Shown one piece after another: positions 5,201-11,200 of a stretch of DNA of 16,900 nucleotides (its first letter is position 1; each line of letters begins with the position of its first letter). The stretch spans positions 1 through 16,900 of IMG/VR virus record IMGVR_UViG_2724679238_000014, one strand, 5' to 3'. The DNA is from a virus. Its lineage: Duplodnaviria; Heunggongvirae; Uroviricota; Caudoviricetes. Made by a program: the position numbers.

Positions 5201-8200
5201 AGGCAGAAAATGTCCGTTATAAAAACGCCGGTAAATCGTCCCCAGAGAACCGTTACGTTGTTTCGTGATATTGATTTCTGCTATGCCCCTGGCCTGCGTA
5301 TCCGGGTTGTACACTTCATCCCTGTAAAGCATCAGAATGATGTCTGCATCTGCCTCTATTTCTCCGGAATTTTTCAGGTCTGAGTTCATGGGGCGTTTAT
5401 TGGGTCTGGACTCCACACCACGGGAGAGCTGGCTCAGCGCAATTAAGGGAAAACCACCGGATTTTGCCAGGCCTTTAAGCCCCTTTGAGATTTCACCCAC
5501 GGCAAGGTCATGACGCCCCGTGGTTCGGGTTTTTATCAGCCCGAGATAATCAACCACCACCAGCGCCGTTTCCGGATATTTAATCAGGTGGTGTTTCGTT
5601 GTTGCGCATATCTCGTCAATGGTCAGGTTCGCCTGGTCCACCATCCAGATATTGCGCCCGGTCATCCGCCCCACCCCTTGTGAGAAACGCGCCCAGTCTT
5701 CGTCTTCAAAGTGAGCGACAGATTTCAGACGTGATACCGGCATTCCTCCAGCCGCAGATACCATGCGCTCACCAATCTGGATGTTCGCCATTTCCATTGT
5801 GAACAGAAGAACACCATGCCCCTGCTCAGTCACCTTGTCGATGATATCCAGCGCCAGTTCAGTTTTGCCCATTGACGGACGAGCCGCAATAAATACCAGG
5901 TCGCCGGGCTCCATGCCGCCTGTTTTTGCGTCCAGTTCATCAATACCGGTCATCAGTGCCCTGGATTTCTCCAGCCCCTGATTCCGGCATTCAACACGCT
6001 CAACCACTTCCGGAAGCACATCATCAATATGTACCGGCTGAATAGCGCCCTTTTCCATCGACAATGAGGCCATCATGTTTTGAGCATCCTTCAGAGCATC
6101 TTCAGCTGCTTCACAGGTATGCGCATCACGTAATTTCTGCAGCGCCTCATTCAGTGTTTTTTCTGCATCACGCAAGGCGGCATTGCGCCGCAGCGCTGCA
6201 ACATAGTGCTCCAGTGACGACTTCACCCAGGTTTTGCGCCCGGTATCAGTAATCACCGGGGCAAGTTCCGGCATCTCATTGCACAGCAGCACAGGATCAA
6301 TCACACCTGAAACACGGGCCTGTCTGCAGATGCCTGTGTAGATATCCCGATACGCTCGTACAGAAAAAACGTCCGCCGGTAGTGTGGCCAGAATATCCAT
6401 CACTTCATGATCTGCCCCTCGCAGAAAAAACGCGCCAATGACAGCGCCTTCCAGGTCATCGTTACGCCAGACAGGAGAAGTCATGCTGCCATACCTCTGA
6501 TACGAGAACGATAGCTGGGCCAGTTAAACGACAACCAGTTGCGTCCCCCGTCTGTGATCCTGTCGGCAATGCGGGGGCTGATGAATGCCCACAACTCTTC
6601 CGGTGAAAGGTTGCTGATCAGGATGGTGGGCAGGATGCTTTCGTACCGGGCATTGATAATTTCCTGCAAAATAGCCATTTCAGCCGCGCTGCCAAACTGA
6701 ACGCCGACTTCGTCGATGATCAGCAAATCCATTGACGCATAATGCTCAATAACTTCATCCGCTGTTTTTTCGCTGTCATTTCGCCAGCAGTTTTTCACAG
6801 CACGGGTAAGGCGCATCACATCAGTAATCTCCACACTAGCCAGATGGTTACGGATGATGTGTTTTGCCATAGCCACAGCCAGATGATTTTTTCCGGTACC
6901 ACAACTGCCTGTCAGAACAAGACTGGTACCGTTAGCCAGAACATCCTCCCAGCTCTCAGCATAGCGGCGGCAGGCAGCAAGATTTCTGGCTGCATCAGAG
7001 TTAATCTCCTGATAGTTTTCAAACTCACAGTCGCGAAACCTACAGGCAACACCAGCATTCTCAATCAGCACATCAGCTTTCATTGCAACCAGAGTCCGAT
7101 GTGTCACATCCATTTCATCCACCAGACACTCCGGACAGCGGGAAATTTTTGAGACAGCGCCCCCCTGCCGATCATCCCACACCAGTATATGCGTACGATA
7201 TTTACCGTGTTTTTCGCAGCATCCAACCCCTTCAGATTCCCGACAGGCACGGTAAGGCCATGGCTTTTCGCCATTCTGAGCAAATGCAATCTCTGCCCGT
7301 AACTCATCCATTCGCGCCTGTAGTCTTGTTTGTTTCTCACGTTGGTCAATCGTCATCATCGCTGTCACCTCAGAATGTCAGTTTGTCACTGGATTTACCG
7401 AATTTGTCAGACATGGCTCCCAGGCCAGACAGGACATCGACCTGTCGCTGTCGCCCACCTCCGTGAGCGGCTGGCTGTTGCCAGGTATCATCAAAATGAC
7501 GATCGGGGCCAAAGAACGTCGCTGCCTGCTTCACGAACTGTGTGCCGGTATTTCCTGTAGCACGTACCCAGGCGGCATACCGCTTCACGCCATCAAGCAT
7601 GCTCTCCGGTTTTATTCCCTCCCTGATACGTGCTTTCCAGGCTTTGAAGGCTGCTGACTTGGAATTGCCACCAGCACGTTTGGGATATTCCTGCCATGCC
7701 TGTTCAAATTCCGGTGAATATTCCAGTCGGGCAGAACGCGCTGGTGCAGACGCGTCAGCGGATGCGCCAATAGTTGATTCATTGACTGGTTCTTTGACTG
7801 GTTCAAAAGAGTGACTGGTTCTGGGTGAATCTCCTGCACTACCTCCTGGTGCAACTCTTACACCACCTGGTGAATTTGCTGCACTAGGTAGTGAATTATT
7901 TGCACTACCACCTGGTGAATCTTTTGCACCATCAAGACGAAGAAGATAAATATTGCTCGAGTTCCCTTTTTCACCTTTCCGGGAAACTTTTTTTACCAGT
8001 CCGGATTCACAAAGAGCCGTAATATGATTCATCACAGAACGTTTGCTAATCTCGCACTGATCAGCAATATGCTGATAGCTGGGCCAGCACTCGCCCTGAT
8101 CGCTGGCATTATCAGCCAGCTTAATCAGAACCAGTTTTCGCAACGGATTTCCCACGCGAATTTTCATCGCTTTCACCATCAACTCCATGCTCATAACACA

Positions 8201-11200
8201 CCTCCCAGACGCTTAAACATTTTCCCGGACTGAAAAGCCACCAGCGGATAACTCAGGGTATGAGTACGCCCCTGAATCTGGCAGACAACCTTCTGGCTTT
8301 CTGTATTGACCAAGCAAACCCGCAGAACGTGGCCGTTGCTGGTGGTGAACCACTGCCCCACACGGGGGCAACGGTTGTATCGGTGATACAGGGAATTAAC
8401 GACGCGGCGAATCATGGGCGCACCTCCCATTGATTACGGTGGAAAGCGGTGTGACTGAGGCTGATTTCTGCCTCATGGAATGCTTCAATGCAGCTCTCGT
8501 AGTACCGCATTGTGCGCAGACTTAACCCAAGCTGAAGCATCATCAGGACATCAAGGGTGATGTAATAACCACGCAGGGAGTCACCATAGATGTGATAAGT
8601 ACCCGGTATGAAATTGCGGGTAAAAAATTCGCGCGAGCAGTTCAGATACTCGATTTTGTCGACGATGTTCTGGTGCATGCGCTTGAAATGGCAGGCAACA
8701 TGCAGGGAGAAAATAACGGCCTTGCCGTTGACGACTTCGATTTTCAGGTATGGGGAAGTTGGGACTGTAGCCATGATGGCAGCCTCCGATAACAGTGAAT
8801 TACCTTCACCACCGGAAACGCCAATTTCGCTGGTGGTGAACTGAACGGGGTTGGCGTAACCGGCGTTATCGGAAACCGGCGCACCTTTCGGTGCCCCCGT
8901 CCAGCCCACCATAATTTGGGTGTGCGCAGACGCAGACGATAAAAAAGACGCTGGCGCGTCATATATCGCCGATAACATTTCCAGGACGCCAATCCCGGCA
9001 CCCGCTTTATAAGGTGCTTGGACAGTGTACCGTCCCGAAATTGCAGAATCAATATTTAGGCTTGAAACATTCATATGCTTACTGGTATTTTTGTTAACGT
9101 TCTTGGATTCTTGGGCCTGCTTTATGCAGTTGCCTGTATCAACGTTGAGCGAGCCGGGTCACTACCCGGCTTTTTTTCACCGCTGCCAGCCAATAACCTG
9201 AAATAACCCCATTTTCGGGTGATACCAGCGAGTCCCTCGCGGTTCTGCTTCCTCCATAACCCGATAAAAAGCAGCCATAAACGGTTCCACGGCAACAATT
9301 GCGCGACGTGATAACAATCCGTCCGGCGTCATAAACTCGTGGGTATCTGTAGGAATTTGATAAGCGTTCACCAGATTGCGGCATTTATCATCTGACAAAC
9401 CGGTTTTTGCTTTCAGTTGGCGATATCCGGCATAGCCCTCACGAATAGTGCCCTTTTTGATTTGCTCGACTGTTTCAGCAACGTGGCTGACTTTTTCTTC
9501 CACCTGAGTGATCCGTTTCTGCTGGCGAACAGCTTCAAGAGCCATTGCAGCAACCATTTCGATTTCGCTCATTGGCTTACGGATCTGTTCTTCCAGTTCG
9601 CGCCAGCGATCTACCAGGCGGGCTGTGAATTCGGGGCAAAGCTGAGCGACAACAATGATGCTGTCGCGTTTGCCTCGTTCACCTTCGAAAAGATAATGCT
9701 TACTTTTTTGAGTTAAACCTAACCCATTGATATTTTCAGAAATCCCCATTGGGGGAAGCTGAATAATCCTTCTTTCAGCAAGGCGCTCAATGGATTGTTT
9801 AACTTTGTCATGGCGGCTGCCCACCAGCTCTGCGATTTCAACACTGGTCATGGATGCTTTGCCGTTAAAAATTGCGGTGTTCACTGCCATCTCCTTACGG
9901 ATAAATTCTTTTAAAATTCCGCACATTCGTACTTGTTGGTGCCGAACCTTCCTTTAGTTATCCTTTTGATCCCTATAAACAAAAGAACCAAAGGAGGTTC
10001 GACATGTCACAAAAAAACGATATTCCTGTTTTTCCTATTACAGCCTGGCAGGCTGGACCATTGCCCGGTTATGGTGCGCTAGCATTAAAATTCCAGTACC
10101 TGGCTTCCCCTATGCAACCACTGGATTCAGCACAAGAAACTCAGTTCTTCGCGCTTACTCCCGAAATGGCTGAGACTTTGATCTCCGATCTGCGCCGACA
10201 TATTGAGACGCTGAAAAAATCCGGTATTCACAGCCCACAAGAAAACAGGCATTAATCGAAAACACGGTTGCCACATAATTTCTTGAAAAGCGTCGCGCAC
10301 TGGCGCTTTTCATTTCTCTACGATCAACAAGCATGCACTTCACTTCACCTCCCCCGTGCGCGCTAGACTTGGATTTGAAATTTTGCGTAACGAATCAGGA
10401 ATTCCATCTTCAGGGTGAGGATAAAGATCTGGCCTTAAGCCATGTGGCGTGACTTTCCATGCAACTACTTCACATACGCGTAAAACAAAACGAGCAGGAA
10501 TTGTGTTTTTTGAAAACCACTGATTCACCGCTTGCGGCGTCACACCAAGATTTCGCGCTATGGCATTTTGCGCAATTAATGTACGAAGTTTGTCGTAATC
10601 ATTTCCTTTCATAACAAAGCACCAACATTAACTTTATGAATCAAGAATACATCAAGTTTAAATTAACATGCAAGTTGCAAAAGGATCGAATACACTAAAA
10701 TCAAGTAAAGATTTATCCTTGTAAAGAAACCCACAGGATTTGGTCATGAAGAACGTCAAAAACACGGAAAATCGAATAGCCGCGATGCTGAAAGCAAAAG
10801 GATGGACTCAGGCTCAACTTGCCCGCAAGTTAGGCGTGAGTGCGCAATCAGTGCAGTACTGGACAACAGGAAAAACATTTCCACGGAGTGATAAGCTCGC
10901 GCATTTATCAGAGATTAGCGGTTATCCACAATCCTGGTTCTTAGGTGAAGACTCCTCACCAACCTTTTCCTCGCAAGAGAAACACCAGACAAGAACAGAT
11001 AGCGTCGTGTTTAATGTCCTTGATGTTGAGTTTAGTTGCGGTGATGGAACTCATGTCCGTGGTGACTTGATAGATGTAGTGCGCTCAATAGAACTTGATC
11101 CTGAATATGCCCGACGTCTTGTTGGAAATCGGGCATTCAAAAATATAGAAATAGGTAACGCCAGAGGAGACAGTATGGCTCCCACAATCTCACCTGGCGA

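Follow-up and report, generated by a model that had tools for sequence, protein, structure and literature searches.

What stands at the head of the replication operon of this prophage? In the stretch analyzed here, called the window below (16,900 nucleotides (nt), positions 1 to 16,900 of the Caudoviricetes record IMGVR_UViG_2724679238_000014), two open reading frames (ORFs) of 220 and 74 amino acids (aa) precede the genes for an O-like initiator, a DnaC-like loader and the DnaB helicase. A preliminary description, made from the sequence alone, presented both ORFs as unrecognized genes in the place where lambdoid phages usually have cII, and suggested either replication accessory factors or a lysis-lysogeny regulator of an undescribed type. 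The two ORFs are indeed present on the minus strand (9074..8412 and 8415..8191). Nothing points to an undescribed type of regulator, however. The 5' 300 nt of the "220-aa gene" are very probably an RNA immunity cassette of the kind known as c4 in P1/P7, cI-seqA in P4 and IsrK in Gifsy-1, heading the replication chain of an Eru7-like lambdoid prophage; the regulator would be this known RNA system.

Two Rfam families matched inside the 220-aa ORF and on its strand: isrK (RF01394) at 9017..8941 (63.7 bits, gathering threshold 50, model positions 1-77 of 77) and C4 antisense RNA (RF01695) at 8916..8829 (82.8 bits, gathering threshold 45, model positions 1-87 of 87). Together with the linker they cover residues ~20-100 of the ORF, and all elements that follow lie on the same minus strand. 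The IsrK / P4 SeqA-type RNA (9017..8941) consists of hairpin 1, a hairpin 2 that holds box b1 (UUGGCGU, 8992..8986), box a1 (GUUAUCGG, 8976..8969) and, at its end, an intrinsic terminator, GACGC-GCCA-GCGUC-U6 (GACGCGCCAGCGUC-U6, 8960..8941), which was also found independently by a pattern scan. The C4 / P4 CI-type antisense RNA (8916..8829) has a conserved AUG at its 5' end (8912..8910), corresponding to Met55 of the long ORF, and carries box a' (CCGAUAAC, 8872..8865) and box b' (ACGCCAA, 8857..8851) in its loops. Next come box b2 (UUGGCGU, 8824..8818) and box a2 (GUUAUCGG, 8793..8786), the latter running into a Shine-Dalgarno sequence (GGAGG, 8787..8783) that is positioned 8 nt before an internal AUG (8774..8772), which is Met101 of the long ORF. 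Boxes a' and b' are exactly complementary to a1/b1 and a2/b2 within the window, and the box sequences have no further occurrence in its 16.9 kb. The two RNAs, their pairings, the masked Shine-Dalgarno of AUG 8774, the nested ORFs and the gap-free chain to the replication genes are thus read directly from the window.

Upstream of the cassette, we read a -35 element, TTGATT (9052..9047), and a -10 element, TACACT (9029..9024), separated by a 17-nt spacer; this is a probable sigma-70 promoter of the RNA cassette (9052..9024). The -10 element sits 6 nt ahead of G9017, the first base of the isrK match, and downstream of ATG 9074. The promoter block is kept in relatives and the DNA upstream of the block is mosaic. 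All relatives scanned had an isrK and C4 pair immediately ahead of the homologous ORF. The pair recurs in P4, phage 2851, Gifsy-1 and APSE-7 (where the RNAs are annotated); the P1-like phage has C4 only. We also noted that seven loci (L023, L047, L051, L062, L074, L077 and L082) carry two tandem modules each of isrK + C4 (+ Rha-like ORF), and that some annotated proteins (342 aa; P0052) span two cassettes, the second of them being read in a different frame.

Covariation was assessed in 80 related viral loci, from which 25 distinct versions were aligned. All three C4 stems were 100% paired (n = 25 sequences), with compensatory changes at 12 pairs; these included 8 pairs of the 17-pair outer stem and 4 pairs of hairpin 1. 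The intermolecular helices behaved similarly: a':a2 was 97% paired (compensatory changes at 7/8 pairs), b':b2 96% (5/5), a1:a' 97.5% (7/8) and b1:b' 95% (6/7), as compared to 29-47% pairing in slid controls for stems and intermolecular helices (33-44% for the C4 stems, a':a2 and b':b2). Because both the stems and the box pairings covary, we conclude that the RNA system is real at this locus. Furthermore, ten a' alleles and eight b' alleles were present in 19 combinations, each allele co-varying across all three of its sites, and the predicted duplex energy was -38.9 kcal/mol for cognate partners vs -24.7 kcal/mol when both boxes differ. This allele pattern is the classical immunity-specificity signature of the P1/P7 type, on a larger scale.

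We next consider whether the N-terminal half of the long ORF is RNA or protein. The preliminary description called the 220-aa ORF unrecognized and lacking a helix-turn-helix (HTH) or other motif; both statements fail, since the ORF belongs to a widespread annotated family. Its RefSeq name is 'ash family protein', Pfam Phage_ASH (PF10554) matches residues 16-108 (1.3e-17, 64.7 bits, gathering threshold 26; 57.4 bits against residues 1-100 alone), PHROG 995 'transcriptional regulator' matches at 1.7e-91, and Rha-type matches cover the C-terminal part. Related DNA is present in 1359 of 5426 complete E. coli genomes, and also in Shiga toxin (Stx)-converting phages, phiP27 (L16) and SfV (orf37, 'immunity region'), with an identity to these phage relatives of 82-100% over the cassette and 86-97% over a 1.15-kb query. 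Among the DNA matches is LC567818.1, the Eru7 reference Stx phage (PMC8951638). The Gly/Ala/Ser-rich N-terminus that had been described is a real feature: these three residues make up 41% of residues 1-100 vs 16% of residues 101-220.

A codon-position test, in which variable alignment columns were counted at positions 1/2/3 for each segment, distinguished the two halves. The counts were 20/19/16 in the isrK segment, 16/21/22 in the C4 segment and 13/17/13 in the linker up to Met101, vs 41/32/80 in the 120 codons after Met101, which is a coding signature. Codons 1-100 are without codon periodicity, so the Phage_ASH region does not display protein-type constraint, and protein-like evolution is confined to the C-terminal 120 residues of the long ORF. 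An AlphaFold model of the 220-aa ORF, built on a 39-sequence alignment, reached a predicted local distance difference test score (pLDDT) of 31.7, and residues 1-109 had no assigned secondary structure in this low-confidence model. Phage_ASH also matches the obsolete P4 'cI gene product' coding sequence (CDS) that overlies the CI RNA: in P4 (L087; 8168..8584 and 7888..8175), PF10554 matches the old 'cI protein' CDS and epsilon is PF25738. Given the flat codon positions, the structureless model and the match to the P4 CI-RNA CDS, the Ash 'domain' is best read as what results when the RNA cassette is conceptually translated. PF10554 has served as the epsilon marker in surveying P4-like satellites (PMC8628076); this marker probably detects the immunity RNA locus.

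One competing reading is that the 220-aa ORF encodes a genuine two-domain protein (Ash + Rha), the RNA matches being secondary or vestigial. The Phage_ASH score of 64.7 bits speaks for such a protein, as do the 1855 database proteins that match the family, most of them named 'ash family protein', and a frame that no relative interrupts, that begins further upstream in 19 loci and that is depleted of stop-creating substitutions. However, the third-position excess of variation seen in the last 120 codons is missing from the first 100, the variation that does exist there is explained by three-way RNA complementarity, and residues 1-109 lack secondary structure in the low-confidence AlphaFold model. 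The same Pfam family also matches the P4 'cI' CDS, whose active product is RNA (PMC10111431). Moreover, the Gifsy-1, 2851 and APSE-7 RNAs are out of frame with, or separated by a stop from, the downstream gene (PMC4825925), and one relative reads its second cassette copy in another frame. We therefore regard a two-domain protein as unlikely.

The opposite extreme, that the N-terminal half is simply untranslated, was considered in its strong form and dropped, because the frame is open in every variant and stop-creating changes are depleted. Over the 300 nt before Met101, all 62 unique variants of the upstream region (81 sequences) keep the long frame open. Each of the two remaining sense frames contains 0-8 stops, with a single variant stop-free in one of them, and only 0.9% of shuffled sequences are stop-free. 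Among 180 distinct substitutions, one created a stop in the long frame vs 5.8 expected; the corresponding observed numbers for the other frames were 14 and 7. An open frame and stop depletion without a codon signature suggest that ribosome passage is selected and the amino-acid sequence is not, that is, a role like that of P4 eta. The case that the preliminary description had named against itself, namely that the 220-aa ORF is not translated, therefore largely holds for the 100 N-terminal codons as a protein domain, although the passage of ribosomes through them is probably still selected. In relatives, an ATGA frequently joins the ATG of the long ORF to the stop codon of the gene before it, a coupling that would be expected if ribosomes on early transcripts are to traverse the cassette. 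The window has its ATG 9074 ahead of the -35 element (9052), sharing a reading frame with AUG 8774.

The part of the long ORF that does evolve as protein is the nested 120-aa ORF that runs from Met101 to the stop (8412..8774, minus strand), a candidate Rha-type (Bro-network) regulator or antirepressor. Its start context, GGAGGCUGCCAUCAUGGCUACA, is common to P1 icd, the P4 65-codon ORF and SfV orf37, and the Met101 start is homologous to the starts of P1 icd and of the P4 65-codon ORF. PHROG 518 'Rha-like' matches the 120-aa product at 2.3e-11, the product is 34% identical to phi80 Rha (tblastn), and PF09669 (Phage_pRha) is listed in precomputed Pfam annotation for close homologues. Elsewhere, the cargoes behind the cassette are different members of the Bro network, namely ORF6N proteins (Gifsy-1 AnrP and 2851 AntA), a Bro-N protein (APSE-7) and Icd/Ant (P1). 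By analogy, the 120-aa Rha-domain protein is most likely an antirepressor or Bro-network regulator. We also considered the cargo as a paralogue of the upstream 249-aa Rha/Ant protein; BLASTP returned no similarity, and the candidate was rejected.

On the pattern of P1, P4 and Gifsy-1, the cassette would probably control translation of the Rha-like, 74-aa and replication genes and, through polarity, their transcription as well. In a lysogen, the internal promoter would yield mostly the terminated IsrK-like RNA, and read-through transcripts would be processed to the C4-like RNA. The latter would pair with a2/b2 and block ribosome entry at AUG 8774; the untranslated RNA would then be terminated by Rho, which would silence the genes behind the switch (Rha-like, 74-aa, O-like, DnaC-like and DnaB) even under a leaky main repressor. 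An excess of IsrK-like RNA might titrate C4 through a1/b1 and turn translation on, as in Gifsy-1. Lastly, transcripts from the early promoter would carry ATG 9074, and ribosomes on the long frame could bypass the switch, as is said of P4 eta. Such a bypass would account for a frame that is kept open despite unconserved amino acids.

Several observations weigh against this reading. The cassette promoter agrees with consensus at 8 of 12 positions and was missed by a scan set at 9/12, and we infer, rather than show, a transcription start near G9017. ATG 9074 has no Shine-Dalgarno sequence and is 102 nt away from the upstream gene; being uncoupled in this way, the eta-like bypass would be weaker here than in the ATGA-coupled relatives, and it is the weakest step of the proposed mechanism in this prophage. 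Given the conserved frame, a fusion protein of 220 aa (or of 166 aa, from Met55) may really be made and act in its own right. As for the cargo, its assignment to Rha draws in part on matches below threshold: TIGR02681 (3.4e-8, 33.5 bits) stayed under its curated cut-off of 45.95, as did Phage_pRha (residues 123-203 of the 220-aa ORF; 2.4e-5 and 25.2 bits with the 120-aa product) under its cut-off of 29.9. Structure prediction of the cargo-bearing ORF failed (pLDDT 31.7), and orthology between the cargo and Gifsy-1 AnrP had to be rejected, with BLASTP finding no similarity.

The 74-aa gene is the next translationally coupled gene and the only truly uncharacterized one of the two, so that the claim of two unrecognized genes stands for this ORF and not for the 220-aa ORF, which belongs to a known family. 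It contains cysteines (16, 34 and 45) and histidines (11, 29 and 52), as had been described; among 22 homologues, C16 and C34 are invariant and C45, H11 and H29 nearly so. The gene (PHROG 1153) has its own Shine-Dalgarno sequence, GGGAGG, and its variable columns by codon position (27/28/51) mark it as protein-coding. It is present in 79 of the 80 related loci, and homologues of 48-53% identity occupy the slot between an antirepressor-type ORF and the initiator in SfV (orf38), ST64B, mEp460 and cdtI. All 51 database homologues found by a word-based search are 'hypothetical', and a HMMER search recovered only 21 representatives among 1.84 billion proteins. The AlphaFold model (pLDDT 75) consists of an N-terminal helix and a five-stranded small barrel. 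Its best resemblances in the PDB are KOW, Tudor and SH3 barrels at E-values of 0.02-0.4, with the Spt5/NusG KOW domains at 0.02-0.3 and template modeling (TM) scores of 0.5-0.6; Foldseek gave no match at E<=0.001 against the PDB, and only uncharacterized barrels in BFVD. Pfam, NCBIfam and PADLOC yielded no functional family for the 74-aa protein; DUF4222 (PF13973) scored 13.8 bits vs a gathering threshold of 27 (E 0.042), and PHROG 1343 reached only 0.0026. As modeled, the protein is simply a conserved small beta-barrel without assignable function.

Could both ORFs nevertheless encode novel protein factors, either replication accessories or a new cII/cIII-like regulator, made in stoichiometric amounts with the O-like, DnaC-like and DnaB proteins? 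Their location between the cro-like and O-like genes invites this idea, and ATGA overlaps and good Shine-Dalgarno sequences connect them with the replication functions; an initiator comes after the 74-aa gene in 79/80 loci and also in SfV, ST64B and mEp460. Yet known families account for the 220-aa ORF, neither ORF matched a cII or cIII family at E<=0.1 in Pfam, PHROGs or NCBIfam, and the searches gave no positive evidence of any function for the 74-aa protein. PADLOC defence models matched none of the three proteins, and a PDB sequence search with the 220-aa, 120-aa and 74-aa sequences gave nothing meaningful. Furthermore, the 74-aa gene follows an antirepressor-type gene as consistently as it precedes an initiator, even where the initiators are only 40-50% identical, and its linkage thus does not single out replication. 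On balance we find this proposal improbable, although these results do not refute it for the 74-aa gene. We also noted that the Rha-like ORF and the 74-aa gene are set apart in 44 of the 79 loci by an insertion of 188-1510 nt, made up of small ORFs or a second module; E. coli MS8345 (L001), for example, has a 64-aa ORF there. The direct ATGA coupling of the window is one of several arrangements.

It is highly improbable that the cassette is an inactive relic with idle RNAs and ORFs in a decaying prophage. Defective prophages are common in E. coli, and neither the -10 nor the -35 element is perfect; yet the two RNAs are complete and their stems intact, the three copies of each box match perfectly in the window, the downstream ORFs are intact and overlapping, and near-identical copies occur in Stx-converting and other phage genome records.

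The surrounding genes place the cassette in a recognizable order. A LexA-like repressor gene (10740..11435, plus strand) is followed on the minus strand, in order of transcription, by a cro/YdaS-like gene (10612..10340), the 249-aa Rha/Ant-like gene (9926..9177), the 220-aa ORF from ATG 9074 (9074..8412), the 74-aa ORF (8415..8191; its longest form, from ATG 8430, has 79 aa), the O-like initiator gene with HTH_36 and DnaD_N domains (8194..7370), the DnaC-like loader gene (7368..6481) and the DnaB helicase gene (6484..5093). The 220-aa ORF is not directly in the cII position, since the 249-aa Rha/Ant-like gene intervenes between it and the cro-like gene. The 74-aa, O-like, DnaC-like and DnaB genes are physically chained behind the 220-aa ORF, the replication genes having no intergenic gap apart from a short spacing at one junction. 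The ATGA chain into the replication genes, as originally described, is accurate for three of four junctions, the overlaps being 8415..8412 (220-aa ORF/74-aa ORF), 8194..8191 (74-aa ORF/O-like gene) and 6484..6481 (DnaC-like gene/DnaB), and does not extend to the O-like/DnaC-like junction, where TGA (7372..7370) is followed by a GTG 1 nt on or an ATG 10 nt on. The ATG, which stands behind GAGGTG, is the more likely start of the DnaC-like gene.

The O-like initiator gene contains five direct repeats of 21-24 nt that resemble iterons (7817..7929), as well as TGACTGGTTCT in three copies (7783..7822), and it probably harbors the replication origin, as in lambda. Between the 249-aa Rha gene and ATG 9074 there is a strong terminator-like hairpin on the plus strand, GAGCCGGGT-CACT-ACCCGGCTT plus a T run (9151..9179), which is antisense to the operon and kept in relatives as two sequence variants. 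A plus-strand promoter-like sequence, TTGAAA-18-TATTTT (9062..9091), stands back-to-back with the cassette promoter; from this site and the hairpin (9062..9179), an antisense RNA of ~80 nt could be made. A second plus-strand terminator-like hairpin (10284..10312) directly follows an 83-aa plus-strand ORF (10004..10255), which points to a small, convergently transcribed unit in the interval from the cro-like gene to the 249-aa Rha gene. Finally, two tRNA genes (2124..2274, minus strand) are located downstream of the replication and Q-type region, and close relatives have a tRNA cluster ahead of the lysis genes, in a position equivalent to that of the window.

One consequence concerns annotation: the 'ash family proteins', which number in the thousands, would largely be the translation of two regulatory RNAs, and so would the Pfam Ash domain that has been discussed for the replication regions of Shiga-toxin phages; analyses that use Ash as a protein domain or gene marker need to be read in that light. 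In a common class of E. coli prophages, Eru7-like Stx phages among them, a second, RNA-based gate ahead of replication would also bear on lysogen stability and toxin release, and the many co-varying specificity alleles make cross-talk between prophages in one host open to direct test. P1, P4 and Gifsy-1 had already established the biology. What seems under-appreciated rather than new is that Ash is an RNA cassette, that an eta-like frame is conserved across lambdoid relatives, and that the alleles are combinatorially diverse. More speculatively, and with considerable doubt as to the whole, these observations might be combined: the 'ash' frame might stay open only as a ribosome track that lets early transcripts override a P4-type immunity, the 10 x 8 box alleles might define mutually blind immunity classes among co-resident E. 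coli/Stx prophages including Eru7, and the KOW-like barrel of the 74-aa protein might be a new factor for transcription-translation coupling or Rho at the switch, not a replication protein. If this were true, the immunity classes would affect, upon induction, both the set of prophages that replicate and the amount of Shiga toxin produced.

How does the window compare with known systems? The replication regions of Eru6/Eru7 Stx phages, phiP27 and SfV have the same order as the window (cI, cro, Rha/Ant gene(s), Ash-Rha ORF, small ORF, HTH_36 initiator, loader, helicase) and are members of its own family. In the description of the Eru types, Rha and Ash are protein domains of unknown function and the RNAs are unmentioned (PMC8951638). 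The RNA geometry of Gifsy-1 agrees with that of the window almost to the nucleotide: a 77-nt isrK, a gap of 25 nt (24 in the window), C4, and then 54 nt to the cargo AUG, as in the window. The AUG at the 5' end of C4, where orf45 starts, is at nt 107 in Gifsy-1 and at nt 106 (Met55) in the window. The 45 codons of orf45 have to be translated for production of the antirepressor-like AnrP, and it is their nucleotide, not protein, sequence that is conserved (PMC4825925). Experiments in the same study (Hershko-Shalev et al., 2016; PMC4825925) showed that transcripts read through the IsrK terminator, that the long transcript is inactive, that IsrK activates in trans and that translation is coupled into the cargo. 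The two loci also differ: orf45 ends out of frame in an AUGA shared with the start of anrP, whereas the equivalent 46 codons of the window are fused in frame to the cargo, and the frame of the window, unlike orf45, reaches beyond the promoter on its upstream side. Gifsy-1 has an ORF6N cargo and the window one of the Rha type, without detectable similarity, and the Gifsy-1 locus comes after the Q antiterminator gene whereas the window cassette comes before the replication genes.

In the immI region of P1/P7 (c4 - icd - ant1/ant2), the C4 loops a' and b' face two sets of targets, the second of which lies over the ribosome-binding site of the next ORF, as in the window. The start context of icd is homologous to that of the window, and specificity alleles differ between heteroimmune phages. 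Unlike the window, the P1-like locus that we scanned gave no Rfam isrK match upstream of C4, and the cargo in P1 is Icd + Ant in an operon with no replication genes behind.

The immunity region of P4 runs PLE - seqA - cI (CI RNA) - seqC - nested kil/eta genes, with alpha (replication) further on. Its order of elements is that of the window, from an internal promoter to an IsrK/SeqA-type RNA and a C4/CI-type RNA (both matched by Rfam in P4), with a GGAGGCUGCCAUCAUGGCUAC start after the C4/CI RNA and replication genes (P4 alpha) downstream of the switch. The P4 'cI' active product is RNA (PMC10111431). An ORF of 197-199 codons extends from upstream of the P4 immunity promoter through seqA and cI, in frame with a 65-codon ORF beginning CAGGAGGCUGCCAUCAUGGCUAC, and the ATGs at 8767-8761, upstream of the seqA start, are in frame with the 65-codon ORF in a layout like that of the window; the ST64B homologue is annotated 'similar to P4 ORF199'. 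We take the 65-codon ORF to be kil. In P4, eta and kil are reportedly nested, and translation of the long ORF (eta) is said to make transcripts insensitive to the RNA immunity; the layout of 197-199 and 65 codons fits these nested genes. P4 differs in having a longer seqA-CI spacing, and its short ORF encodes 65 aa, whereas the window has a 120-aa Rha-domain protein after the first ~8 shared residues. The window, in contrast to P4, belongs to a lambdoid prophage that encodes a LexA-like CI repressor and Cro, so that the RNA switch would act as a second layer of control, rather than as the sole immunity system that it is in P4.

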